A stretch of 64,000 bases of DNA from Escherichia coli (GCF_024223415.1 NZ_CP100500.1), one strand, 5' to 3'. Positions 14,549 through 55,940 are shown, numbered from the stretch's first letter. Program-made: numbers and translations. The notes: a model not told the origin generated them from the letters alone.

Positions 14549-16993
14549 TTACACCTTTTCAACCTGAACAAGGTTTGTATGTGACGGATTCCCCTTAGCG
14601 AGAGGAGACGGACGTTGAGTGGTCAGTACGTTAATACAACCACCCTTATCGACACGTTTTGTATCCGGGTCATACCAGGCACCTTCACCCAGTGCGACCA
14701 CACCCGGCATCATTCGTGGCGTCACTTTCGCCTCAATATGAACCTCACCACGATCGTTAAAGATCCTGACTTTATCGCCGTTGTGGATACCGCGTTTTTG
14801 GGCATCAAGCGGGTTGATCCACATTTCCTGACGGCAAGCCGCTTTCAGCACATCAACGTTGCCGTAAGTTGAGTGAACGCGAGATTTATAGTGGAAACCC
14901 GTAAGCTGCAGCGGATACTGTTTGTTCAGCGGATCCTGATAACTTTCAAAGCCCGGCGTATAGATCGGCAGTGGATCGATCACATCGCCTTCTGGCAATT
15001 CCCAGGTAGCGGCAATGTCAGCCAGCGCCTGCGAATAAATCTCAATTTTACCCGATGGCGTGGTCAGTGGATTTGCCTGCGGATCTTCACGGAAGGCTTT
15101 ATAAGCAACGTGATGCCCTTGTGGGTCGCGCTTTTTAAAGATCCCCTGCTTGCGGAACTCTTCAAACGTTGGCAGTTCAGGAATCGCTTCCCGCGACTGG
15201 GCATACAGATGCCGCATCCACTCTTCCTGGGTACGGCCTTCAGTAAACTGTTGCTCAACGCCAAGACGTTTTGCCAGTTCGCTGGTCATTTCATAGATGG
15301 TCTTACATTCAAAGCGCGGTTTAATCACCTGATCGTTGAAAATCACGTAAGACATATTCCCGCAGGATGCATCCAGTGCAAAGTCCATCTGTTCGGAAGC
15401 GGTGCAGTCAGGCAGCAGGATGTCAGCATATTTCGCCGATGAGGTCATGTGGCAGTCGATAACCACAATCAGCTCGCACTTCTTATCATCCTGGAGGATT
15501 TCATGGGTACGGTTGATTTCAGAATGCTGGTTAATCAGGCAGTTACCGGCATAGTTCCAGATCATTTTGATCGGCACATCCAGCTTATCTTTCCCGCGCA
15601 CACCATCACGCAGCGCCGTCATTTCCGGGCCACGTTCAATGGCATCGGTCCACATAAACATCGAAATGCTGGTCTGGATCGGGTTTTCCAAGGTCGGCAT
15701 ACGGACAAACGGTAAGCTGTATGAACCTTCACGCGCGCCGCTGTTCCCTCCATTAATACCAACGTTACCGGTCAGAATCGCCAGCATCGAGATAGCACGG
15801 GTTGCGATTTCACCGTTAGCGTGACGCTGCGGGCCCCATCCCTGGCTGATAAACGCCGGTTTGGTACTGCCGATTTCACGAGCCAGTTTGATGATTTTGT
15901 CTGCCGGAACACCGGTGATTTGCGAGGCCCATTCCGGTGATTTAGCCACGCCATCTGGCCCTTCACCCAGAATATAAGCTTTATAGTGGCCATTTTTCGG
16001 CGCACTGGCTGGCAGGGTTTTCTCATCGTAGCCAACGCAATATTTATCGAGGAATGCCTGATCCACCAGGTTTTCAGTGATCATGACGTACGCCAGACCG
16101 TTAACCAGTGCGGCATCTGTTCCCGGACGAATAGGGATCCACTCATCTTCGCGCCCGGCACCGGTGTCGGTATAGCGCGGATCGATGATGATCATGCGGG
16201 CATTAGATTTCTGGCGTGCCTGTTCAAGATAGTAAGTCACCCCACCGCCACTCATTCGCGTTTCGCCAGGGTTATTACCAAACAGCACTACCAGCTTACT
16301 GTTTTCGATATCCGACGGGCTGTTGCCATCTGCCCAGCCGCCGTAGGTATAGTTCAGACCTTCCGCAATTTGCGCGGAAGAGTAGTCACCGTAATGGTTC
16401 AGATAACCGCCGCAGCAGTTCATCAGGCGCGCGACCAGGGTATTTCCCGGCGGCCAGGAGCGGGTCATGGTGCCACCCAGCGTACCGGTGCCATAGTTCA
16501 GATAGATGGATTCGTTGCCGTACTCTTTGATCAGGCGCTGCATATTGGTCGCGATGATGTCGTAGGCTTCTTCCCAGCTAATGCGCTCGAATTTGCCTTC
16601 ACCGCGCGCCCCGACTCGTTTCATCGGATATTTCAGGCGGTCCGGATTATAGACACGGCGACGCATGGAACGCCCACGCAGGCAGGCGCGAACCTGGTGC
16701 AGGCCGTCGTAATTGTCATCGCCGGTATTGTCCGTTTCGACATATTTGATTTCACCGTCCACGACGTGCATACGTAGCGGGCAGCGACTACCACAGTTAA
16801 CTGTACAGGCGCTCCAGATAACCTTTTCGTCTGATTTTGTTGGAATAGCGCTATCGACAGCGTGCGCAATCCGACTAAAAGGTAATGTTAATGCGCTGCT
16901 GGCCATTGCCAGGCCGCCGATCGCTGTCGTTTTTACCAAACCACGGCGACTCACCTCAGCAGCCAATACCGCATCAGGGATTTTCGTTTTCAT
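14549..16993 (-). CDS. dmsA: DMSO reductase catalytic molybdopterin subunit
   Basis: 814 aa with an N-terminal twin-arginine signal (SRRGLVKTTAIGGLAMASSALTLPFSRIAHA) and molybdopterin oxidoreductase motifs. Confidence 0.95.
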   Translation of the reverse strand: MKTKIPDAVLAAEVSRRGLVKTTAIGGLAMASSALTLPFSRIAHAVDSAIPTKSDEKVIWSACTVNCGSRCPLRMHVVDGEIKYVETDNTGDDNYDGLHQVRACLRGRSMRRRVYNPDRLKYPMKRVGARGEGKFERISWEEAYDIIATNMQRLIKEYGNESIYLNYGTGTLGGTMTRSWPPGNTLVARLMNCCGGYLNHYGDYSSAQIAEGLNYTYGGWADGNSPSDIENSKLVVLFGNNPGETRMSGGGVTYYLEQARQKSNARMIIIDPRYTDTGAGREDEWIPIRPGTDAALVNGLAYVMITENLVDQAFLDKYCVGYDEKTLPASAPKNGHYKAYILGEGPDGVAKSPEWASQITGVPADKIIKLAREIGSTKPAFISQGWGPQRHANGEIATRAISMLAILTGNVGINGGNSGAREGSYSLPFVRMPTLENPIQTSISMFMWTDAIERGPEMTALRDGVRGKDKLDVPIKMIWNYAGNCLINQHSEINRTHEILQDDKKCELIVVIDCHMTSSAKYADILLPDCTASEQMDFALDASCGNMSYVIFNDQVIKPRFECKTIYEMTSELAKRLGVEQQFTEGRTQEEWMRHLYAQSREAIPELPTFEEFRKQGIFKKRDPQGHHVAYKAFREDPQANPLTTPSGKIEIYSQALADIAATWELPEGDVIDPLPIYTPGFESYQDPLNKQYPLQLTGFHYKSRVHSTYGNVDVLKAACRQEMWINPLDAQKRGIHNGDKVRIFNDRGEVHIEAKVTPRMMPGVVALGEGAWYDPDTKRVDKGGCINVLTTQRPSPLAKGNPSHTNLVQVEKV

Positions 16994-17289
16994 AATGGCT
17001 CACTCAAGCTTGCTCACGATTGATTCCAGTAACAAACCGTATTGTGTAATTATTTCTATAGCAGATCGCTATATAGGCTTGTATACATCGAATAATTTGA
17101 AAATCAAAGAGATAGGTAGATTTTCACTCGAAAGTAGTATTACGTGTAAGTGAGGAGTAATTATTGTTCGGTATCAAAGGGAGACAAAAAAAGCGCCCGC
17201 AGGAGATTTAACGGTACTTACTCCTCTTGCTGATTTCCTTATTTTTCAATAAGTAAACAAAAACAAGGGGAGCAAATTATCACAAATAA

Positions 17290-18294
17290 TTACTGGTCGA
17301 TGGACAGTTTATGGACACTTTCAGCCAGCGGATTAAAGCTGATCGCATCCTGTAAAAAGTCCGGTGAAAAATGCGCATACGTCATCGTTTGCTGAATCGT
17401 GGCGTGACCCAGGATCCTCTGCAACGTGACGATGTTCCCGCCGTTCATCATGAAATGCGTGGCGAACGTGTGCCGCATGACATGCGTGGCCTGCCCTTTG
17501 GGTAAGTCGGGCTTCACCTCCTGAAGGATCTCCCTGAAACTGAGATAATCAACCTGATATAACAGGCCGGTCCGGCGGGTTTTAATTAACGGCACAACGG
17601 AATCAGCTACAGGAACCGAGCGCGATTTCCCGTTCTTTGTGTTAAAGAACGTCACCCTGTTACCCACGATGTGTTCCCCGCGAAGCGTTGACGCCTCTTT
17701 CCATCTGGCCCCGGTCGAAAGGCACAGAATGGCAATGCGTCGTGCATCACCCTCAAGCCGTTTCAGAAGGCGATCAATCTCGTCATCTGAAAGAAAGGCC
17801 ATTTCTGTATTCTGAACCTTGAGTTTACGTATTCCGCGCACAGGGTTTTCGTTATGATAAACCTCCGCGTCAATTAACAACGAAAACATCGCAGATAAGG
17901 CGCACAGGTCGCGATTGATACTGGACGGCATCAGTCCCGCCTGCAACTTATCCGAGCGATACTCAATCATGAATTTTCGTGTCATCTGGCTGGCGCGCGG
18001 GTCCCCCATTTCACGTATCACCTTCTCCAGTCTGGTTCTGTAGGTATCACCATATGCCTGATTACGACCATCAAGCATCCACCACACCTCAATCAGTTCT
18101 GATAACCGCCGTTGATCGGCGGGCCTTGCCTGCCACGGGTTATTGTGGAAATTCTGAAGAACGTATCTTTCGAATTCCTGCGCCTTTGATTTCAGGGTGA
18201 AAATCTTACGAATCCGCCTTCCTCCCGCCCCCTGAGGCCTTACATCAACCTGATAACGTCCGTCTTTGAGTTGCTTAATCGACATGATCAGCAC
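17290..18294 (-). CDS. int: P2-type tyrosine integrase
   Basis: 334 aa; N-terminus (SIKQLKDGRYQVDVRPQG...) and C-terminal catalytic region (ILCLSTGARW..., HVMRHTFATHFMMNGGNIVTLQRILGH...YAHF) resemble P2 Int. Confidence 0.9.
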   Translation of the reverse strand: MLIMSIKQLKDGRYQVDVRPQGAGGRRIRKIFTLKSKAQEFERYVLQNFHNNPWQARPADQRRLSELIEVWWMLDGRNQAYGDTYRTRLEKVIREMGDPRASQMTRKFMIEYRSDKLQAGLMPSSINRDLCALSAMFSLLIDAEVYHNENPVRGIRKLKVQNTEMAFLSDDEIDRLLKRLEGDARRIAILCLSTGARWKEASTLRGEHIVGNRVTFFNTKNGKSRSVPVADSVVPLIKTRRTGLLYQVDYLSFREILQEVKPDLPKGQATHVMRHTFATHFMMNGGNIVTLQRILGHATIQQTMTYAHFSPDFLQDAISFNPLAESVHKLSIDQ

Positions 18295-22643: not shown

Positions 22644-22760
22644 GTAACCACTATGCACACACAAAAAAACCGCTTGCCATGCCGCAATCAGTCAGGTTAC
22701 ATTTCCGCTGCACCTCATAAAACGGGTGCCGGGATTGCAACCCCCGCTGACAAACGAAGC

Positions 22761-22790
22761 GCACAACCGCGCCAGCGGTTTTTTTGTGCG
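22761..22790 (+). terminator. rho-independent terminator (possibly bidirectional)
   Basis: gcacaaccgc-gcca-gcggtt followed by tttttt, embedded in a wider palindrome cgcacaa...ttgtgcg. Confidence 0.6.
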
Positions 22791-22966
22791 TACCGTATCG
22801 CCACGTCTTTTTCGCACCAGAATTATGGTGGGGCGTACGGGGCCGACTTCGGTCGGGCCGGTTTCTTCGTTTGCCGGTGGTTGCAACCCTGTACGTCTCG
22901 CCACCCAGAATTGCAACCTCTGGATGGTGAGTATCCAAAAACTCACAAACGAAGAGGCCAAACACC

Positions 22967-23194
22967 ATGGCAAACCGCAAACAACAGCGCGCATACGCTG
23001 CGCGTCGTCACATCCAGACTGAAATCAACCGCAGACTTTCCCGCGCATTCCGCGTCGCGCATATCATGCACATCAATATGCTGCATGAGCGCAGCCACGC
23101 ACTGTCAAACATGTATTCCGCCGCTGTATTCAGCTACCTGGCGGATGACCTGCGCAAGCTGCAGGACCTCATTAACCAGCACTACCACCACTAA
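22967..23194 (+). CDS. hypothetical protein
   Basis: 75-aa basic ORF (MANRKQQRAYAARRHIQTEINRRLSRAF...). Confidence 0.45.
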   Translation: MANRKQQRAYAARRHIQTEINRRLSRAFRVAHIMHINMLHERSHALSNMYSAAVFSYLADDLRKLQDLINQHYHH

Positions 23195-23681: not shown

Positions 23682-26192
23682 ATGAGCCATCACCACACGC
23701 ACCTGGCGTACCCGTGGAACGCCCCGCTGCCGGTTATTGATCCTGAGACATTCGGCAGAGCATTACCGCAGAAGCCAACCGCATTACAACGGGCAATCCG
23801 TGACTACCTCACCGAAGACATTCGCACTGAGGCCCGGCTGGATGAAGAAACCGTGGCCTTCCTGACAACCACGGACAAAGGTAAGCAAATTAATTCACAC
23901 CTTCACCGGGACGAAGAGCGGCAGATAAGGCTGGATAAGCTGGCACGACACAGACGCGAAAATCCGCCAACGGCGGTATCGGAGGCGATAGCCGAACTTC
24001 GCACCCTGCCCTCGTTTCTTGCCAGTGTGTTGATCCGTGATCTGGCACGACTGAACCGGAAACAGCAAAGTGCCCGCAGTGAAGGTGTAAAAAACAACAG
24101 CGCATACGTGGCCGATAATTTCGTTCGCCGTGGACTGCGTGCGCGCCTGAAACGTATTGAAAGGGTTAACGACCGCTTTGCAACGCCGGCATTCAAAACC
24201 ACCGTCGTGCGCCATCGCCTTGAAGAACTGCTCACACTGCCGCAACTCACCCGTGACGAAATCCAGCGCATCGCCACACTGACAGCCCAGGCATTCGCCG
24301 CAGAATTTGAACGCATATGTGATGAAGTTCTTGAACGGACAGGCAAGGATAATGACAGCCCGGTTATCTGGCTGCTGGCCTACCAGAAGGTGGCACGCAC
24401 AGCCTTAATTCTGGGCGTGGTCCCGCCATACTGGCCGGAACTCGAAATCAGGCACAACCGACGCACACCGCCGGACCCTGAACGGGTTCCGGGTGCGGTA
24501 CTGCGCATCACCTGCGCGACCTGGTGGAACAACCAGTTACGCCACGTCGCCGATCTCTGGCGGGAGGAGTTACTGCGCGCCGCCGGCAGAGTGTCACGTA
24601 AACAATCCCCCTATATCAGCCATGAGTCACTACTGGAGTTCCGCGAGAAGCGCCAGCGCACCCGTGACTTTCTCAAAAGCTGGGATATTGAAAACGAAGA
24701 CGGCGAGCGCCTGAGTCTGGAGGACGTGTACTGGGCTGGCCTGGGTAATCCACGCAACCGCCGCAATGAAATGATGGTCTGCGTCAGAGGGATGGAGATG
24801 GTGGCCGAATTACGGGCTGACGTCGCATTCTTCATCACAGTAACCACCCCTTCCCGCTTTCACAGCGTGAACGAGAACGGCAGCCTGAACCCGAAATACA
24901 ACGGTGCCACAGTACGAGATGCCAGTGATTATCTGGTTTACGACTTCTTCGCAGCCGTAAGAAAAAAAATAAAAAAAGAGGGGCTGGGCTGGTACGGCGT
25001 GCGAACCGCTGAGCCACACCATGACGGCACGCCACACTGGCATATGCTGGTATTCACTTCCCCGGAGAACGCAGAGCGCATCATCGAAATTATGCGCGAA
25101 GCAGCAATTAAATCAGATCGCCACGAACTGGGGGACGATATTTCACCGCGCTTTAAATGCGAGAAGATAGACCCGGAAAAAGGCACACCGGCAAGCTATA
25201 TCGCAACCTATATCGGTAAGAACCTGGACGCCAGCGCTTTCCACAACAATGATCCGAAAACCGGAAAACCTTACGTTGATGAGGAATCCGGGAAAACCAT
25301 GGCGGAAACCGTGGAGAACGCCATTGCCTGGGCAAGCCTTCACCGCATCCGTCAGTTCCAGTTTTTCGGCATTCCGCCCCGCCAGGTATGGCGTGAACTC
25401 CGCCGCCTTGCAAGCCAGATGGAGCGCAACCCGGCATCACCGAAGCACCTCGATCATGACGATATTGACGCCATTATGGCTGCCGCAGATGTGGGATGTT
25501 TTGCCACCTACATCATGAAACAGGGTGGTGTGCTCATTCCGCGCAACCAGTATCTGGTCCGCACCGCATACGAAACCGCAGACGAAGCCAACGACTACGG
25601 TGAATTCCCTCAACGTATCTACGGAATCTGCGCCCCGTCGCTCGGAGAGCGGTACACCATATGCACCCATCCGGACGAGTGGAAACTGGTTAAAAAAGAA
25701 ACAACACCAGACAACCGCACGGGCGAGGGTTTTGACCTTCAGGGCGACCCCGTCGCCCCTTGGACTCGTGGCAATAACTGTCCCCGGGATGAAAAAACAG
25801 ACAATCACGGACCAGAAAACAGGCAGGACCCCGGACGACTGACGCTTCCCGAAGAGAACCTGGAAAGCTGGCTGAATACGTTAAGCAGGGGCGATCGGAG
25901 AAAACTGCGTAATCAGATTAAAAATCAGCCGTCGGGCGCAAAAACCGGACAAAACGACACCACACCGGCATCTGACACCCCTGTAAGGGTGGGGATTGTC
26001 GTGCCTGCGGATACCGCGACGGACACGCAAATCGCCCGCGAACTTGATGCGCTGGGTGTGCAGTTGCCTGACGCGGCCATCATCTCCGTGCGTAACGGTG
26101 CCCGTGTGCGTCTGGATAACGGGGGAACAGCGTACTGGGATGAGTCAGCCCGTCACATCATCACAGAGCAGCCAGTGGAGGCGGGAGCATGA
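23682..26192 (+). CDS. P2 gpA-like rolling-circle replication initiation endonuclease
   Basis: 836 aa with a conserved core including the HxH-type motif (PHWHMLVF) and the surrounding region (FFITVTTPSRFHS...YGVRTAEPHHDGTPHWHMLVF) as in P2/186 A proteins. Confidence 0.85.
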   Translation: MSHHHTHLAYPWNAPLPVIDPETFGRALPQKPTALQRAIRDYLTEDIRTEARLDEETVAFLTTTDKGKQINSHLHRDEERQIRLDKLARHRRENPPTAVSEAIAELRTLPSFLASVLIRDLARLNRKQQSARSEGVKNNSAYVADNFVRRGLRARLKRIERVNDRFATPAFKTTVVRHRLEELLTLPQLTRDEIQRIATLTAQAFAAEFERICDEVLERTGKDNDSPVIWLLAYQKVARTALILGVVPPYWPELEIRHNRRTPPDPERVPGAVLRITCATWWNNQLRHVADLWREELLRAAGRVSRKQSPYISHESLLEFREKRQRTRDFLKSWDIENEDGERLSLEDVYWAGLGNPRNRRNEMMVCVRGMEMVAELRADVAFFITVTTPSRFHSVNENGSLNPKYNGATVRDASDYLVYDFFAAVRKKIKKEGLGWYGVRTAEPHHDGTPHWHMLVFTSPENAERIIEIMREAAIKSDRHELGDDISPRFKCEKIDPEKGTPASYIATYIGKNLDASAFHNNDPKTGKPYVDEESGKTMAETVENAIAWASLHRIRQFQFFGIPPRQVWRELRRLASQMERNPASPKHLDHDDIDAIMAAADVGCFATYIMKQGGVLIPRNQYLVRTAYETADEANDYGEFPQRIYGICAPSLGERYTICTHPDEWKLVKKETTPDNRTGEGFDLQGDPVAPWTRGNNCPRDEKTDNHGPENRQDPGRLTLPEENLESWLNTLSRGDRRKLRNQIKNQPSGAKTGQNDTTPASDTPVRVGIVVPADTATDTQIARELDALGVQLPDAAIISVRNGARVRLDNGGTAYWDESARHIITEQPVEAGA

Positions 26193-43644: not shown

Positions 43645-46600
43645 CTAATCTCTGTCACGGAAACTACCGACTGTCTGGCGGATACGGCGTTCCATTTCCG
43701 CACGGACGGCATCACCCACCATTTTTGCCAGTTCGCGCGGGTTTTGCGTGTGAACATCATGCAGGTGAATATGCAGTTCGCCAGTTAATCCCCATGGTGC
43801 CGCCTCACTCTGGCGCGGTCGGGGCGATGCGGGGGATATGGGCTGGCGCACAGCCTCAACCACCGGACGGGATGTTGCCGCCATCACTGGTGTCATTAGC
43901 GGGGAGAACGTCGGCATGACATCGTGAGTCATAACCGGTTTGATCACCGGCGGAACCACTGGCGTAATATTACCGGACAGTACCGGACGGACGACCGGAG
44001 GAATAACCGGCACATTATTCACGGACACCACCGGCTTCACGACCGGCGACACGTTCGCCGTGGTGGATATCAGCGGCGAAACACTGACAGGCGGTGGCGC
44101 TGGCAGCGGTGGCAACGAAGGCACACTGACCGACGGCACCTGCGGCAGTCTGACAGGTGGCTCACTGACACTACCCGGTAACAGGGAAGCTGCGCGGTTA
44201 AAGCGTTCCTCCTTCCACTCACCACGAACGGCCAGCGCTTCCGGCAGGTTTTTAAAGATAATATCGCCGGGACCAGCGCGTTTTTTCGCCTGTTTCGCCT
44301 CATCCAGCAGACCACCGGTGTTATCGACGATTTTGTTCAGGCGGCGCATAGTGCCGGTATTCTCCCCCGTCAGGGGTGGTTGCCCCCCTTTGGGTTTTTC
44401 GCCGTATTTTTTATCCTCGTCCTTTTTCGGCGGATTAATGACGTTAACATCCGCCAGAAGCATGGCAGCTTTCTCGTTCAGCAACTCCTTCTGTTTTAGT
44501 TCTTCCGCTTTTTTCCGGGCGCGCTCAACCGCTGACGGAATCAGCCCGAGTTTTTCCAGCACCCGGGTTAATGAGTCAATCAGCAGCGTAACCGGACCGG
44601 TCACCAGATTGCTGATAAACTCCCCGACCTTCTGCCCGAACGTCCGCCCGGCTTCCGTGCACTTGTCCAGCTCATCCTTTGTTGTGCTTACCGGCGCGAA
44701 CAAATCCACGAACCACTGCCACACACGCCCGATTGTCTGCCCGACATACTCAAACAATGGTCCCAGTGGTGCCACAGCCTCGCGCAGTGGCGTAAGCCCC
44801 TGCCACAGGCCGGACAAGAACCCGCCCACGACAGCCTTCAGCTGGTCCCAGTGCCGCCAGATAAGCACTGCCGCACCGACCAGTGTCGCCACCACAAGGC
44901 CCACCGGACTTAACAGAAAACCCAGCGCCCCGCCAAGTGCGCCCACCGCACCACTCACCATCCCCCACAGTGCGGGCAGACCTGACAGTCTGAGCGCCAG
45001 TATTCCGATACCGCGCCCCAGTGAAATCAGTGCGCCGCCAGGTGAAGTGAACGCAGCCAGCAGACCACCACGCAGCGCGCCAAGTCCCGCCTGCACACCA
45101 CGAAGCCGCCCCGCAACTACGCCCAGCAGTGCAGCAAACCGTCCGGCACCGGAGGTGATACCGACAAACAGCACGCGCCAGCCACCGATACCGCCCAGCG
45201 GACCACCGAGTACGCCGCGCAGCTGCGTCAGTAACGGCAGCGCACGACCGAGGCCGGATGTGCCGGTCAGCAGGGCAAACCCAAGACGCAGTTTTGCCAG
45301 CGGCCCCATCAACACACCAGTGGCAAGTGACAGCGCCCCCATGGCCGCAACCGCAGCCAGCAGTACACCACCGGCAATCAGCAGTTGTTTTGTCAGTTCA
45401 GGGTGCGCCTGAGCCAGCGCGGTGACTTTCGCAATAACCCGGGTGAACGACTGCGTGACAGAACGCAGCGGCCCGTCAACGAGGTCAGCGATACGGATAC
45501 GCAGTCCTTCCCATGCGCTGTTCAGTGATTTCAGGTCACCGTCCAGGTTATCAACCATAACACGGGCAGTCTGATTAAGTTCCCCGGTGGCCAGTTCAAT
45601 CTCCTGCGTAAGACGGGGAAGATTATTTTCCCCCGCCGCAGTGACAAGATTCATCAGGGAAACATAGGACTCCTGCCCGGCAATAGCCCTGAAAAAGGAG
45701 ACCTGCGCGGCATTACCGTATTTTCGGGTGGCCTGGTACAGCTCATTCAGGATATTTTCCATCCGGCGCATGTTCCCGTAAGCATCCTGCGTCTCCACGC
45801 CAAGCTCTTTCAGTGCCATTGCAGCGGCCTTCGGCGGATCAACCAGACGTGACAGACTGGCACGCAGCGCCGTACCTGCATCACTTCCACGGATCCCCAC
45901 ACTGCCAAGGACACCCGTCATGGCTGCCGCCTGTTCAAGGGACAGGCCAAGTGAAGCTGCAACCGGCCCCGTGTACTTCATGGTTTCACCCAGCGAACGG
46001 AGATCCGTATTGGTTCGTGTGAAGGTGGCGGCCAGCGTGTCACCCACGCGATCCATCTGGTCAGCGGACAGACCAAACTGTGTGAGGATATTCGAACTGA
46101 TATCGGCAGTCTGTCCCAGGTCCATCCCTGCAGCCATTGCCAGATCAAGCACGCCGGGTAGCGCCGCCTGTATGGCCTGTGGTGTGAAGCTGGCCATGGC
46201 AAGGAACGCCTGACCGCTGGCAGCATCACCGGCGGTAAACTGCGTTTCAGAGCCCAGCTTAATGGCCTGTTCGCGCAGCGCCTTAAACTGCGGACTGTTT
46301 TTGTCAATACGGGTCAGCGCCTGGACGCGCGACATCTCCTTACCAAAACTGACCGCCGGTTGCAGGAAACGTCCGGCCGCATAGCCGCCTGCCGCCGCCG
46401 TACCAACCGCCGTAAGTCCGACCGTTTTAAGTTTTCCCGCCGTCTCCTGAGCACGGGAATATTGCTGGCGTGCCTGCGTGACACGTGCCAGCGCCTGCCG
46501 TTCGCGTTCCAGCTGGTCGTTGTATTGCTGTGTTCGCCGTATGGCCTGTTGAATGGTGTTGTCACTGCCGGAAAGCGCAATACCGTGGCGCCGCAGCTCA

Positions 46601-49482: not shown

Positions 49483-50574
49483 ATGAAAGAGCTGTCAGTT
49501 ACCGTTCCGTCACCGGATATCGACATCACCATCAACAACAACACACTGGCAAACCTCACAGAGCGACTCATGACGCTGACCCTGACGGATAACCGGGCCT
49601 TTGAGGCAGACCGCGTCACCCTCACCCTTGACGATACGGACGGGCAGTTACAGTTGCCACCACGTGGCGCACGCCTGAGAGTGATGATTGGCTGGCGAGG
49701 AGAATCACTGGTTAACAAGGGCACCTACGTCGTTGATGAGGTTGCGTGGGAAGGACCTCCAGATAAACTGATCATCACCGCCAGCAGCGCAGATTTTCGG
49801 GAAGAGTTCAACGTGAGGCGGGAGGTATCCTGGCACGACGTGACCGTAAAACAGGTTGTGTCAGCCATCGCTCACCGCTACGGCCTGAAGACACAGATAA
49901 GCGAAATCCTCATGGATATCGAAATTGACCACGCTGACCAGACCGAAGAGAGCGATATATCCTTCCTGACCCGCATGGCTGAAATGCTGGGTGCGATTGC
50001 CACCGTAAAAAACGGCAGCCTGTTATTCATTCTGCCGGGTGGCGGAACCGGGCCGGACGGAAGAGCCCTGCCTTCGTTCGCCATTACCCGCAGCAGCGGC
50101 GACAGTCACCGCTTTCGCATTGCTGACCGTGATGCGTATACGGGGGTCCGGGCGCACTGGCTCGATCTGAAGTTCGGGCAAAAGAAAAAAGTGAACGTGA
50201 AGCGACGCAGGGAAGCCGGGAAACAGAAACAGGAGAAGAGCAGCAGCCGGGAGGGTGATTACATGGAAGGCGCGGAAGGGAACGTCTACGTTCTGCGCAG
50301 GACTTACCAGAATGAAGAAACCGCACGACGTGCAGCTGCGGCAAAGTGGCAGGAGTTACAGCGGGGAGCAGCGGCATTCTCCATCACTCTGGCACGGGGT
50401 CGTGCCGACCTGTACCCCGAAATGCACGGCAGGGTAACAGGTTTTAAAAGCGAGGTGGACAATCAGGACTGGATTATTGCCAGGGTGGAGCACATCATAG
50501 ATGAAAGCGGCTTCACCACACAACTGGAGCTGGAAGCGAAAATCCCCGAATGGATAGCAGATTCAGGCGGATAA
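49483..50574 (+). CDS. P2 gpD-like tail protein
   Basis: ORF 49447-50574; ATG at 49483 follows aggaga. Blocks LTLTDNRAFEAD, SWHDVTV, HADQTEESDISFLTRMAEMLGAIATVKNGSLLF, ITRSSGDSHRF, GRADLYPE parallel P2 D. Confidence 0.88.
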   Translation: MKELSVTVPSPDIDITINNNTLANLTERLMTLTLTDNRAFEADRVTLTLDDTDGQLQLPPRGARLRVMIGWRGESLVNKGTYVVDEVAWEGPPDKLIITASSADFREEFNVRREVSWHDVTVKQVVSAIAHRYGLKTQISEILMDIEIDHADQTEESDISFLTRMAEMLGAIATVKNGSLLFILPGGGTGPDGRALPSFAITRSSGDSHRFRIADRDAYTGVRAHWLDLKFGQKKKVNVKRRREAGKQKQEKSSSREGDYMEGAEGNVYVLRRTYQNEETARRAAAAKWQELQRGAAAFSITLARGRADLYPEMHGRVTGFKSEVDNQDWIIARVEHIIDESGFTTQLELEAKIPEWIADSGG

Positions 50575-50617
50575 AATTAAAATGAGCCATCTCCACTCAG
50601 CCAGATAAGGAGAAGCC

Positions 50618-50869
50618 ATGTTCCGTTGTCCCCTATGCGGTGCATCCGCACGTATCCGCACCAGTCGCAATGAAAATGATTCAGGCACAGTTCGCCTGAA
50701 GTACTACCAGTGCAATAACCTCGAATGCGGGATCGGCTTTACCACACTGGAGGGTTTTAACAAATTCACATCAAAACGCGCCCCGTCGCCGCAGGGTACA
50801 GAGCGGATACCGTGGGAAGATTTTCCGGGATCTCACAGGGGGAATACTCAGATTAATCTTGATATTTAA
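50618..50869 (+). CDS. ogr: Ogr/Delta-family zinc-finger late gene activator
   Basis: 83 aa; MFRCPLCGASARIRTSRNENDSGTVRLKYYQCNNLECGIGF parallels P2 Ogr (MFHCPLC...YHQCQNVNC...) with a C4 zinc finger (C4, C7, C32, C37). Confidence 0.85.
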   Translation: MFRCPLCGASARIRTSRNENDSGTVRLKYYQCNNLECGIGFTTLEGFNKFTSKRAPSPQGTERIPWEDFPGSHRGNTQINLDI

Positions 50870-51804
50870 GAACAATAATCAGGTTGAGAGGACATCATAA
50901 GGCAAGTAGATTAACGGCAGATACTTTCCCGCAACCACGGGCAAGTATTTAATTATCCATGATGAAATATGACCTAAATTGTTTTTTGCCCGCCGGAAAG
51001 CGGGCATTTTTTTATTCTTTTGTGGTTATGGGGTCATCAGGAACCACGTGCAGATTATATTTTTGTTTTTTTGGCGTTCCTCCGGCAGCAACGAGTTCAT
51101 CAATAAGACACTGACACGCCTGAACATCCCGGGCATGTCTTAGTTTCACCTTTATTGATTTAACCTTATCCTCACCGGAGGAGAAATGCAGTTCAATCTC
51201 AATATCGTTTCTTCGGAACAATCTCATACGCCCCCTGAATATATCAGAAATACTAGTATCGAAAAATGAGAAAACAGTTAGACAGGAGAAACATATTAAC
51301 ACAAATCATTTATACCTATAGATGAAATTATAATTTCATTCATGAATATGATAGATAACTATATTGTGAACAAAATGAAAAATGGCTAAATTAAAAATGG
51401 GCATGGAGGAATGCCCGGTTATCAATATAATGTGACGTAGATCATTGTTTTGCCCGCCGGAGAGCGGGCATTTTTTTTGCGCCTGCCATCGAGGCGCCTT
51501 CCCTGGCGCACACAAAGCAGCCCTGATTTTCCATGAAAACTTCAGGGTTGAGCTGCGGGCACAAAGTGAGTAGATTAGCTACGGGTACCTCCCCCTGACA
51601 ACAGGAAGGGTGTCCATTATCCATGATATACAAACGAAAAGTCTTGTTTTTTGCCCGCCGAAGCGCGGGCATTTTTTTATGCATCAGACAAGATACAGCC
51701 CACCCCAACTGACACCTGAAATATTGCCGCAACAAAAAGAAACAGTTAAATTACGCGCGGGTGCCTTTCGGCTGATGGCCGGAGGGAAAACCTGAAGGCC
51801 GGAT

Positions 51805-52038
51805 GTGGAAAGGCCCCGGAAAACATTTCTGTTTAACCGAGGCCCTAACCGCATTACCTTGACAAGTGAAAGGTTAGCGCCTCTCCGGAAAAGGAGCAAG
51901 TGCTATGTCGCAAAAATCGCTTACGGCCATCACGTTCTGCGTGACGGCAATCCTCATCATCTGGATATTGCACGGTTCGCTGTGCGAAATACGGATGAGC
52001 TTCTGGGGAGCGGAGTTTGCGGCGTTCTTACAATGTAA
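51805..52038 (+). CDS. mok-like overlapping reading frame upstream of and overlapping the hok-like gene
   Basis: 77-aa ORF in a different frame that overlaps the Hok-like ORF, as in hok/mok/sok loci; may be regulatory rather than a stable protein. Confidence 0.35.
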   Translation: MERPRKTFLFNRGPNRITLTSERLAPLRKRSKCYVAKIAYGHHVLRDGNPHHLDIARFAVRNTDELLGSGVCGVLTM

Positions 52039-52045
52039 GAAGTAA
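51905..52045 (+). CDS. Hok/Gef-family type I toxin-like small membrane protein
   Basis: 46 aa, MSQKSLTAITFCVTAILIIWILHGSLCEIRMSFWGAEFAAFLQCKK: N-terminal transmembrane helix plus the conserved SLCEI...AAF... C-terminal pattern of Hok proteins. RBS aaaggag upstream; terminator at ~52140-52170. Confidence 0.7.
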   Translation: MSQKSLTAITFCVTAILIIWILHGSLCEIRMSFWGAEFAAFLQCKK

Positions 52046-53909
52046 GGAAACCGCGACGGGGGAGCAATCCCCCGTCAATCGGTTGCCAGGGTAAGGTCGA
52101 TAAGGCACCCTATCTCACAGACATGAACAAACAAACCCGCAGCATAAAAACTGCGGGTTTTCTTTTTGGTGTCCTCACCGACTTGAAACAGTGATCAGAC
52201 TATAAGACAAAGCCCGCAATGTTGCGGGCTTACTCTACCTCTCGAAAATGTGGTCACTGCGTGGACATACGCTGATACAAATCCTTTATATCAATAAATT
52301 AAATCTTTGTTTTTTTCATCAACAATGATTTAACCTTATCCTCACCGGAGGAGAAATGCAGTTCAATCTCAATATCGTTTCTGTGGAACAGCCTCATAAG
52401 ACAACCTCCTGAATTCATCAGAAACACAGTCAACTGAAAACCAGAAAGCAGACAAACAGTGGACACACATTAATACAAATCATTTATACCTATAGATGAA
52501 ATTGCAGTTTCATCTATAACATGACAGGTAACAATATTGTGAAAAAACTCAAAACTCGTTAGATTAAAGACGGACAGAGCAATGCTACTTTATCAATAAC
52601 ATGTAACCTGTACTTCCTTATTTTGCCCGCCGAAGCACGGGCATTTTTTTTGCGCCTGCCATCGAGGCGCCTTCCCTGGCGCACACAAAGCAGCCCTGAT
52701 TTTCCATGAAAACTTCAGGGTTGAGCCAAAAGCACAAAGACAGTAGATTAACCACGGGTGCCTTCCACCTGACAACAGGAAGGGTGTCCAGTATCAATGA
52801 CAGACAACTCACATTGCTGTTTTGCCCGCCGGAAAGCGGGCATTTTTTTATTCTTTTGTGGTTATTGGGTCATCAGGAACAACATGCAGATTATGCTTTG
52901 ATTTTTTTGGTGTTATTACAGCAGCAACGAGTTTATTAATAAGACACTGACATGCCTGAACATCCCTGACATATCATAATATCACTTTATTTTTTTAGCT
53001 TGTCCTTTCTGGAGCAGAAATATCTCAACATCGTTTCTGTGGAACAACCTCATTTGCCCTTGAATGTATCATAAATATCAGCATCGGAAAACCAACAGCA
53101 ATACAGAAGAAACATGTTAATGCAAATCACTTATACCTATAGATGAAATTACAGTTTTGTTCATAAATATGATAAGTAACTATATTGTGAATAAAATGAA
53201 AACTAGCTAAATTAAACGTGGGCATGGTGGAATGCCTCGTAATCAATAATACATGATCCGTACTTCCTTGTTTTGCCCGCCGGAAAGCGGGCATTTTTTT
53301 GGCGGTTACCATCGCCTCACCTTCCTGGTTCACATGAAGCAACCCTGATTTTCCATGAAAACTTCAGGGTTGAGACAAAAGCACAAAGACAGTAGATTAA
53401 CCACGGGTACCTTCCACCTGACAACAGGAAGGCTGTCCAGTATCAATGACAGACAACTCACATTGCTGTTTTGCCCGCCGGAAAGCGGGCTTTTTTTGGC
53501 AGTTATCATAGCCGCACCTTCCTGGCACATATGAAGCAACCCTGATTTTCCATGAAAACTTCAGGGTTGAGACAAAAGCACAAAAACAGTAGATTAACCA
53601 CGGGTGCCTGCCACCTGACAACAGGAAGGGTGTCCATTATCCATGATATACAAACGAAAAGTCTTGTCTTTTGCCCGCCAAAGCGCGGGCATTTTTTTAT
53701 GCATCAGACAAGATACAGCCCACCCCAACTGACACCTGAAATATTGCCGCAACAAAAAGAAACGGGTGCCTTTCGGCTGATGGCCGGAGGGAAAACCTGA
53801 AGGCCGGATGTGGAAAGGCCCCGGAAAACATCTGTGTTTAACCGAGGCCTGACCCTTCCTACCGTGACAAGTGGAAGGTTAGCGCCTCTTTGTAAAAGGA
53901 GCAAGCGCT

Positions 53910-54050
53910 ATACCGCAAAAAACGATTATTGTTGGCATTTTATGCCTGACAATAACCCTGGTCATCTGGATGGTCCACGATTCGTTATGTGAATTCAGCT
54001 TTGATATCTGGGGAGCGCGTTTTGCGGCGTTCTTGCAGTGTAAACCGTAA
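53910..54050 (+). pseudogene. second Hok-family copy with a non-canonical start (ATA in place of ATG)
   Basis: Same frame and context as the first copy (...ggagcaagcgctATAccg...) giving (I)PQKTIIVGILCLTITLVIWMVHDSLCEFSFDIWGARFAAFLQCKP; ~60% identical to copy 1. The upstream mok-like ORF (53810-53992) is present. Confidence 0.5.
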
Positions 54051-54583
54051 GAAACCGCAGCGGGGGAGAAATTCCCCGCTATCCGGTTGTTGGGGTGGGC
54101 CGATATGGCGCCCTTTCCCTGTAGAGACAAAACAAAAAACCAGATTTGCCCGCCATTGAGAGGGCTTTTTTGTCACCCTCACCAGTGAGGGCATCATCAT
54201 TCAGAGGCGCGTAAGCCACCCGGCGTTAACATCCTGCCTGTCAACCCTGGCCGCAGAGTCTGAACGGCAGGTACCGGAAGGAGTACCAAAAACATCCCTG
54301 ACAAGTTCCGCCACCTTCCCGATATCATCAGGTGTCACATTCCTCACCTCGGCAGTGATCCGTGGCGTACCATCATCGTTAACAAGAGTGGCTTTAAAGC
54401 TGGTGCGAAGGGAAAACAACATCAACATCCCCTCCCTTTGGTTCGTTGCACTGACGGCACGACACCATCAGGAAAAAGAAAAGCCCACAACGTCAGTATT
54501 GTGGACTTTTTTCTTCAAAGATGGACATTATCTGGACACATGAAAATAAAATCCATTTATTTTCATATAGTTAAGTACCATGC

Positions 54584-54606
54584 AAAAGCGCCCGCAGGCG
54601 CTTTTT
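54584..54606 (-). terminator. serS rho-independent terminator (contains the attR core)
   Basis: aaaaGCGCCcgcaGGCGCttttt immediately downstream of the serS stop on the minus strand. Confidence 0.75.
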
Positions 54607-54626
54607 AGATTCAGAAAAATTAGGTA

Positions 54627-55940
<1,314 letters not shown>

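Follow-up and report, generated by a model that had tools for sequence, protein, structure and literature searches.

The DNA considered here is a stretch of 64,000 nucleotides from Escherichia coli (GCF_024223415.1, NZ_CP100500.1; hereafter the window, with positions counted from its first letter), which carries a P2-like prophage at ~17.2-54.6 kb, integrated in the terminator of serS. Between the late activator gene ogr of this prophage and its right attachment site (attR) lies an interval of 3.7 kb (50870 to the attR core at 54584-54598), for which a preliminary description of the same DNA gave coordinates covering 3.3 kb. On balance it is probable that this interval forms an accessory ('moron') end of the prophage, comprising a hok-type toxin locus with its antisense partner (hok1/sok1), a second and decayed hok locus (hok2), eight small RNA (sRNA) genes, and a short open reading frame (ORF71) with relic copies of the phage P' arm. 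The hok part is known, and the eight-unit sRNA-like family appears, as judged from its sequence, to be new and rare.

The eight sRNA-like units

Diverged direct-repeat families (D1-D13) run through the interval, and their alignments resolve two module types, A with five copies and B with three; diverged tandem modules between ogr and attR had been noted in the preliminary description, and rightly so. Nine members of one hairpin family, TTTGCCCGCC-loop-GGGC(A/T)TTTTTT (repeat family D2), start at 50985, 51449, 51650, 52622, 52821, 53272, 53470, 53670 and 54145 (the last ending at 54172), and three further terminator-like hairpins of other sequence lie at 52133-52160, 52210-52231 and 54479-54510. 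The earlier count of at least nine terminator hairpins is thus borne out. In all, 50500-54700 holds 17 terminator-like sites, where dinucleotide shuffles give 5.0 ± 2.3. The best reading of the nine is that eight terminate sRNA-like units, five of type A (A1-A5) and three of type B (B1-B3), and that the remaining one terminates the hok2 mRNA. The predicted RNAs are ~80-97 nt long. A covariance model (R1) built from 11 distinct units finds exactly these eight (58.8-103.8 bits, E 1e-8 to 1e-17), with a weak ninth match over the 3' end of hok2 (23.9 bits), and has no match elsewhere in 184 kb that included P88, the flk-site prophages and the K-12 locus. The units, with their promoter-like hexamers, predicted RNAs and model scores, are as follows.

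50884 to 51013, plus strand: unit A1; TTGAGA-17-TAGATT at 50884-50912; RNA ~50919-51013; 75.4 bits; fold z -3.4; its own 5' stem UAUCCAUGA; terminator 50985-51013
51364 to 51478, plus strand: unit B1; TTGTGA-17-TAAATT at 51364-51392; RNA ~51399-51478; 63.5 bits; 5' stem GGGCAUGGAGGAAUGCCC, UAUCAAUA, terminator
51548 to 51678, plus strand: unit A2; TTGAGC-17-TAGATT; RNA ~51583-51678; 103.8 bits
52537 to 52651, plus strand: unit B2; TTGTGA-17-TAGATT; RNA ~52572-52651; 58.8 bits
52721 to 52849, plus strand: unit A3; TTGAGC-17-TAGATT; RNA ~52756-52849; 100.6 bits; promoter and 5' end align to the hok1 promoter
53185 to 53300, plus strand: unit B3; TTGTGA-17-TAAATT; RNA ~53220-53300; 71.1 bits
53370 to 53497, plus strand: unit A4; TTGAGA-17-TAGATT; RNA ~53405-53497; 93.7 bits
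53567 to 53698, plus strand: unit A5; TTGAGA-17-TAGATT; RNA ~53602-53698; 97.9 bits

The ogr stop codon ends at 50869 and the -35 element of A1 starts at 50884, 15 nt downstream, in agreement with the earlier statement that the first module follows directly on ogr; the A1 terminator probably also ends the ogr mRNA. The promoter-like sequence TTG(A/T)G(A/C)-17-TA(A/G)ATT, with an exact 17-bp spacing and diverged spacers, is present in 13 of the 13 distinct variants from all loci, and in type A both hexamers are almost invariant and the spacer and the remainder diverge. In centroid folds the predicted RNAs share a layout of a 5' stem-loop (in all but B2), an unpaired box UAUC(A/C)AU(G/A)A, a U-rich stretch and the terminator, with B3 (UAAUCAAUAA) and the variant B1b carrying UAAUCA(A/G)UAA instead of the box. 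Three unrelated 5' stem sequences occupy the same position, namely those of A1, of A2-A6 and of B1 and B3. This would be the anatomy of Hfq-dependent base-pairing sRNAs, the transcripts being predicted ones, and it fits the alternative offered in the preliminary description, that of a family of sRNAs.

The units appear to be non-coding, because reading frames differ between copies and the open reading frames (ORFs) of the minus strand are the hairpin itself read in reverse complement. Plus-strand ORFs from a conserved AUG continue past the terminator, in frames that differ between A1 and A2/A3; on the minus strand, ORFs starting MPAFRRAK have no Shine-Dalgarno sequence and are frame-broken between copies. 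Small-peptide coding is, along with trans action on hok ends (considered below), one of the less likely variants.

Other candidates were rejected. A3 and A4 share an 11-nt word with the core of RyhB, a length of match expected by chance, and Rfam RyhB gives 24 bits against a gathering score of 55. One outlier in RNAduplex pairs B1 with the mRNA of gene A (24763-24790; -34 kcal/mol) over 18 contiguous pairs, G-U pairs counted; it is not significant, as seven RNAs were tested and 6 of 200 shuffles of B1 also attain 18 pairs. Complements of the conserved box outside the array occur at about chance level in the window. A type III toxin-antitoxin (TA) system with ToxIN-like RNA repeats was dismissed, because the units lie at distances of 200-470 bp from one another and each has a promoter and a terminator to itself; as for a type III toxin partner, ORF71 relatives have no PADLOC match and neither ORF71 nor the protein P0009 has a Pfam match. 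A scan of 50500-54700 with Rfam 15 gave no match at gathering level, the best matches other than sok reaching 17-26 bits.

The hok loci and the origin of the units

Two hok-type loci lie within the array, on the plus strand, and the second holds a promoter-like site on the opposite strand.

51724 to 52166, plus strand: hok1 locus, from ORF, Rfam, PGAP, PHROG, Pfam and fold evidence; promoter TTGCCG-17-TAAATT at 51724-51752; mRNA ~51759-52166; mok frame 51805-52038; hok ORF 51905-52045 (46 aa); fold-back element ~52097-52113; terminator 52133-52160
53764 to 54172, plus strand: hok2, decayed hok locus, from alignment to hok1 and translations; its terminator is the ninth hairpin (54145-54172)
53925 to 53952, minus strand: candidate Sok2 promoter TTGTCA-16-AATAAT inside hok2; 10/12 matches, the best promoter-like site in the region

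By its sequence, hok1 is a genuine hok-type locus. The 46-aa product is related to Hok, as the preliminary description had supposed: it matches phrog_251, 'MokW-like host killing' (E 8.5e-22), and, over positions 5-42 of the 42 in the model, Pfam HOK_GEF (PF01848; E 9.8e-7), is named 'Hok/Gef family protein' by PGAP, and is 39% identical to R1 Hok in BLASTP (E 6e-7; this R1 is that of hok/sok, not the covariance model). The NCBIfam HokA model scores it at 30.7 bits, with a cut-off of 89. A mok-like GTG ORF (51805-52038) overlaps the hok1 ORF in another frame, and the minimum free energy fold of 51754-52166 (z -9.1) pairs 5' GGGUGCCUUUCGGCU with 3' GGUCGAUAAGGCACCC, the typical fold-back of a hok mRNA. 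In the Rfam covariance search for hok/sok that had been proposed, the sok model matches both hok leaders at 46-48 bits (E ~1e-8; 46.2 bits and E 2.4e-8 for hok1), under the gathering score of 59.

The hok1 DNA shares 90-95% identity with loci of the P2-like phages P88, PhiR44_2, P884B11, 500465-2 and Chuche; with a locus that Shiga toxin (Stx) phages carry downstream of lom it shares 81%. In the flk-site P2-like prophages (two loci sampled) the order is ogr, hok, cargo, P' arm, and because hok follows ogr both there and in the phage loci, a hok gene at this position is ordinary, common and already annotated. The lom-downstream locus of the Stx2 phage Sp5 (VT2-Sakai 44534-44906), which shows the 81% identity, is unannotated in that record and is distinct from the experimentally studied hokW-sokW locus.

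In the reading we favour, hok1/sok1 works as a standard hok-type module; as a putatively complete type I TA locus it has a stable, folded mRNA, predicted to be locked by 5'-3' pairing, that encodes a 46-aa Hok/Gef membrane peptide. By analogy with the hok/sok paradigm, the mRNA would be translated only after 3' processing, once the labile antisense Sok had been depleted, and the outcome may be stabilisation of the prophage, killing of cells in which transcription has been shut off, or help with lysis after induction.

The second locus has fared differently. The repeat that relates the two (D3/D13; 51758-52072 and 53763-54077) is ~72-82% identical, and in hok2 a 15-bp deletion takes out the promoter -10 (TAAATT) and the +1 of the hok mRNA; its ORF (53910-54050) is otherwise open and has ATA instead of ATG, and its mok frame is shortened to 53810-53992. 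The same defects, including the ATA, occur in the array of strain SCU-115 and in one metagenome contig (L026). Both of the Hok-family loci reported earlier are therefore present, with hok1 intact and hok2 having lost its -10 and its ATG, and only hok1 looks functional. Although hok2 is apparently unable to make toxin, the strong antisense promoter-like site lies at the place expected for Sok, and the locus may thus continue to supply a Sok-like RNA as an orphan antitoxin.

These features bear on the reading put forward in the preliminary description, that the whole interval is a multi-copy type I TA array acting in addiction or abortive infection. The two hok-type loci, the resemblance of the unit promoters and 5' ends to those of hok, and the known tendency of type I loci to duplicate in tandem (PMC2887945) speak for it. 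However, eight of the ten units have no toxin ORF, mok frame or Sok target region, the Rfam sok model matches only the two hok leaders, the ORFs through the units are not frame-conserved, and of the two hok loci one has no promoter -10 and no ATG. This reading, which we now hold to be most improbable, is largely refuted by the anatomy.

The repeats probably do share an ancestry with hok. In a multiple alignment the hok, A and B promoters are in register and free of gaps across the -35, the -10 and GGGTGCCTT, with the starts ATTGCCG-17-TA(A/G)ATTA-CGCGCGGGTGCCTTTCGGCTGA (hok), GTTGAG(A/C)-17-TAGATTA-ACCACGGGTGCCTTCCACCTGA (A) and ATTGTGA-17-TAAATTA (B). The 5' parts of the units find their best local alignments on the hok1 promoter (51721-51775; z 3-5.5) and the 3' parts on the hok2 terminator (54145-54171; z 3-6). 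Homology with hok in promoter, transcript start and terminator is thus partly shown, and the units probably arose as internally deleted hok transcripts; we infer with moderate confidence that their ancestors were hok loci which lost the mok/hok/sok body. As regards descent from hok, the earlier notion of one diverged module family is right.

We propose that each A or B unit would be transcribed in the lysogen from its own sigma-70 promoter to the shared intrinsic terminator, giving an RNA of ~80-97 nt, and that the units, being of hok origin, may serve as Hfq-type sRNAs by means of their conserved unpaired box. This box would pair with translation-start regions of host or phage mRNAs; action on such regions is likely because the box complement UCAU(G/U)GAUA contains AUG or UUG. 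The full form of this proposal is that the prophage turned 'mini-hok' RNAs into functional, multi-copy sRNAs which are driven by hok-type promoters and use UAUCNAUGA as a seed on mRNAs of the host or of rival phages, or on hok ends; we advance it tentatively and regard it as rather doubtful.

A related explanation is that the mini-hok RNAs bind the ends of hok mRNA in trans and so adjust how the toxin is activated, serving either as a decoy or as a second layer of antitoxin. It draws on the hok 5'-end sequence GGGUGCCUU in the A-type RNAs, which is paired to a 3' arm resembling the fold-back element, on the position of A units directly upstream of both hok loci (A2-hok1 and A5-hok2), and on cofolds of A3 and A5 with the hok1 3' region, which gain 6-11 kcal/mol over the separate folds. 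The duplex energies are, however, dominated by GC-rich terminator pairing and are non-specific; A1 and the B units do not have the shared 5' sequence, and arrays that have no intact hok (SCU-115 and CS5L) keep their units. We consider such trans action very unlikely.

Prophage setting and growth of the array

The borders of the prophage and the remaining features of the interval are listed below; ORF71 and the relic arms are those included in the accessory end proposed above.

17189 to 17203: attL core; ATGGACA twice at ~17301-17317
17290 to 18294, minus strand: integrase gene
50618 to 50869, plus strand: ogr, Ogr/Delta zinc-finger late activator and left border of the array, from ORF, PGAP annotation and matches to phrog_603 and NF007241
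51012 to 51227, minus strand: ORF71, WP_001236182.1, hypothetical protein; the only intact copy, divergent from B1
51285 to 51341: relic resembling the attP P' arm (family D8, from alignment)
51322 to 51339: perfect 18-bp palindrome ATGAAATTATAATTTCAT between the divergent ORF71 and B1, read from the sequence
52205 to 52331: captured right end of another P2-like lineage, with hairpin 52210-52231 and a 92-bp P' arm (52240-52331) holding the integrase (Int) arm-type repeats TGTGGTCA/CGTGGACA
54201 to 54428, minus strand: 75-aa ORF of unknown function between the array and the P' arm; the homologous position is annotated as hypothetical in CS5L
54521 to 54598: true P' arm and attR core; ATGGACA and CTGGACA at 54521-54538, core AAAAGCGCCCGCAGG at 54584-54598

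The att core of 15 bp, AAAAGCGCCCGCAGG, was read at both junctions, 17189-17203 (attL) and 54584-54598 (attR), and corresponds to the serS terminator. Paired Int arm-type repeats (A/C)TGGACA with 11 bp spacing occur in both arms (~17301-17317 and 54521-54538). With core and arm repeats at both ends, the prophage therefore spans ~17.2-54.6 kb and the entire array lies inside it. That the array might instead be conserved host intergenic DNA of the serS-dmsA region can be given next to no weight: we found no point in its support, the K-12 dmsA-serS intergenic sequence aligns to 16893-17209 and 54584-54747 of the window with a short overlap and has nothing of the array within it, and the arrangement of ogr and array also adjoins zapB (in strain SCU-115) and copA (in CS5L). 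Since the array is found beside ogr at these other sites, it travels with the phage, and the host-intergenic reading is refuted. The array is phage-borne, as the preliminary description had it; empty serS-dmsA sites were named there as places where a host-derived array would be found, and that of K-12 is without it.

The right end also records how the array may have grown. The captured end at 52205-52331 matches, at 86-98% identity, the end next to attR of the flk-site prophages of ~300 genomes, its P' arm is preceded by the cargo terminator of that lineage, and the B units hold a more degenerate copy of the same P' arm sequence. Degenerate or truncated copies of ORF71 lie at ~52299-52466 and ~52850-53060. 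The comparison of the ogr-attR interval in related prophages, which had been suggested, shows the same type of array with 4 to 8 units, and the arrays differ by whole blocks. The order is A1 B1 A3 B3 A4 A5 hok2 in SCU-115 (L003), A1 B2 A3 B3 A4 A5 hok2 in two metagenome contigs (L024 and L026), and A1 B1' A6 A5' in CS5L (L010) and in L016 and L021, of which L021 also keeps hok leader sequence; the window has the longest form, with an added block B1-A2-hok1-terminator-P' arm. These block differences are explained by unequal recombination, which involved paralogous units as well as the right ends of co-resident P2-like phages. The array would accordingly have been built by duplication and recombination of hok-type modules and phage right ends, and the relic P' arms may be its record. 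In one metagenome contig an IS1 lies in the truncated ORF71 of unit B2 (L023 13752-13981), and in strain GF4 an IS421 lies between the array and serS (L011 6532-7644).

Such a history is also the basis of the main rival, namely that the A and B units are non-functional leftovers of repeated unequal crossing-over and of end-to-end recombination among P2-like prophages, that only hok1 acts, and that promoter-like and terminator sequences have been kept only because the units are young or have been homogenised by gene conversion. The mosaic nature of the array, with its captured P' arm, truncated ORF71 copies and dead hok, agrees with this, as do the copy number of 4 to 8 among close relatives, the degenerate stem of B2, the rarity of the array (30 of 5,426 genomes) and the insertion sequences in or beside it in some strains. 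On the other side, A1, A2-A5 and B are ~50-60% identical overall, and yet the hexamers, the 17-bp spacing, the 5' stem, the UAUCNAUGA box and the terminator have been kept, a pattern of conservation despite divergence that is not what neutral decay gives. We therefore regard recombination debris as a serious possibility, and not as the likely explanation.

Several results do weigh against an accessory end with functional sRNA genes. The fold z-scores of the units are modest (-1.0 to -3.4), the 5' stem of B2 is degenerate or lost (z -1.05), and the unit promoters are consensus-like only, with at most 9/12 matches. A point in favour of the units is that 6 of 8 pairs of the 5' helix change on both sides, with cells 90% paired compared with 30-50% in slid controls; the alignment used was, however, fitted to the model, which inflates the count. 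The 16 distinct unit sequences, all of them E. coli ones, offer little diversity, and the near-identity of the terminators could reflect gene conversion and not selection. Target scans within the window gave nothing above chance. The middle part of the units shows no significant similarity to the 3' tail of hok, which leaves only ~45 + 27 nt as the basis for a 'mini-hok' origin. For hok1, no consensus-like Sok promoter was found on the minus strand in the antisense region (~51850-51910).

ORF71 itself matches the C-terminal half of phrog_14142, of unknown function (E 4.9e-12), has no match in Pfam, NCBIfam or PADLOC, and has only 8 relatives among 1.8 billion representative proteins; the AlphaFold model of a long homologue is unreliable (predicted local distance difference test score, pLDDT, 53). 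Relatives in phrog_14142 are either long (128-133 aa) or short (57 aa); they occupy accessory positions, in P4-like satellites and at the edge of a prophage, and no known defence family matched them. In the two loci examined (L006 5001-5742 and L004 5001-5387), a 57-aa relative stands beside a convergent 159-aa gene downstream of the primase in P4-like satellites, and a 128-aa relative stands at a prophage edge beside raiA. For the 75-aa ORF at 54201-54428 neither PHROG nor NCBIfam gave a match, and the gene that P88 has in this place is not similar to it.

The prophage as a whole (17204-54583) has no close sequenced relative; the best phage records are PhiR44_2, Chuche and P88 (P88-like Xuanwuvirus), and they cover at most 29% of 24.6 kb of its late region at ~78% identity. 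STnc130 (Rfam, 125.8 bits) lies at 17084-17218 in the dmsA-serS intergenic region, and its 3' end is the serS terminator and hence the phage att core; after integration the attL copy is full-length to Rfam (model 1-135 of 135), with bases past the core that differ from K-12, and attR keeps a 21-nt partial copy (54584-54604). In the early region, isrK (61.9 bits) and C4 antisense RNA (79.3 bits) match Rfam at gathering level side by side at 22710-22908 on the plus strand, just upstream of a 75-aa ORF (22967-23194), a 137-aa ORF and replication gene A (23682-26192); an antisense-RNA immunity element of the P1/P4 style in a Peduoviridae prophage is worth a look.

Known systems, distribution and meaning

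The R1 hok/sok system and the chromosomal hok loci of E. coli share with hok1 a Hok/Gef ORF with SLCEIR and AAF motifs, a mok frame, a long structured mRNA with 5'-3' pairing, and a leader matched by the Rfam sok model (E ~1e-8). They differ in that the hok1 toxin, of 46 aa, belongs to an 'MSQKSL' subfamily that falls below the NCBIfam and Rfam cut-offs, and in that hok1 has no detected consensus-like Sok promoter. The hok loci of P2-like phages (P88, PhiR44_2, P884B11, 500465-2 and Chuche) and of the flk-site prophages hold the same position relative to ogr, and in P2-like and Stx-phage records the gene goes under the name 'MokW-like host killing' or 'Hok/Gef family'; these P2-like phages, however, have a single hok directly after ogr and no A or B units, and the covariance model was negative in the P88, E110019 and 14EC047 loci. 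The hokW-sokW locus of Sakai prophage 5 has been established experimentally as a type I TA system, dependent on RNase III and Hfq, that speeds phage release after induction (PMC8621323). As a prophage-borne hok-type locus it makes faster release a plausible role for hok1 by analogy; it nonetheless encodes another Hok, one of 51 aa whose cloning primer starts with ATGAAGCAGCAAAAGGCGATG, at an Sp5 locus other than the hok1-related one. An identification of hok1 with the hokW of Takada et al. was accordingly rejected, the locus and the protein being different and not orthologous.

Tandem type I loci such as ldr/rdl, ibs/sib and zorO/orzO duplicate in tandem, and degenerate copies are common (PMC2887945). 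Like them, the array consists of diverged direct repeats of a small-RNA-controlled toxin module in one intergenic stretch; unlike them, most of its repeats have neither toxin nor antisense partner and keep promoter, 5' stem and terminator. The sibling sRNAs OmrA/OmrB, PrrF1/2 and Qrr1-5 are comparable as adjacent paralogous short RNAs with a shared box and terminator and their own promoters, whereas the eight copies here are prophage-borne, are known from sequence and have an apparent origin in a toxin mRNA. Further sibling sRNA genes in tandem are LhrC1-5 of Listeria. Prophage sRNAs of pathogenic E. coli (PasA-D, AgvB, AsxR, DicF and IsrK) are likewise short, terminator-ended RNAs carried as prophage cargo. 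Rfam AgvB, RyhB and rseX reach only 17-26 bits in the array, with gathering scores of 50-56, and E2348/69, the source strain of the Pas RNAs, is in the searched collection and is not among the 30 unit-carrying genomes. The Pas copies are dispersed and linked to Stx-type phages (10.64898/2026.05.13.724894), unlike the tandem units described here.

A and B units were found in 30 of 5,426 complete E. coli genomes, in every case chromosomal and in none annotated, and 25 genomes have the full array of the window. The carriers are enriched for poultry isolates (chicken and chicken meat) from several countries, with some human isolates. Exact unit patterns are matched by three IMG/VR contigs and by seven metagenome contigs, six of the latter having at least two terminators of the family, while 50,697 phage records have no match to A3 or B1, and 100,044 species representative genomes gave only two matches, in unrelated metagenome-assembled genomes, which are likely due to chance. 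Searches of the literature turned up no account of sRNAs located between ogr and att in phages of the P2 type.

Should the units not be expressed, the interval would be a well-resolved case of debris that accumulates at the end of a prophage as phage right ends recombine. If they are expressed, they would provide a concrete example of new sRNA genes arising from toxin-mRNA scaffolds, a natural series of arrays with 4-8 copies in which to study the birth, expansion and decay of sibling sRNAs, and a new class of lysogenic-conversion cargo in the Peduoviridae. Were the conversion of mini-hok RNAs into functional sRNAs to prove true, it would document a route from toxin-mRNA scaffold to trans-acting sRNA, and the array would be the largest tandem sRNA array on a coliphage.

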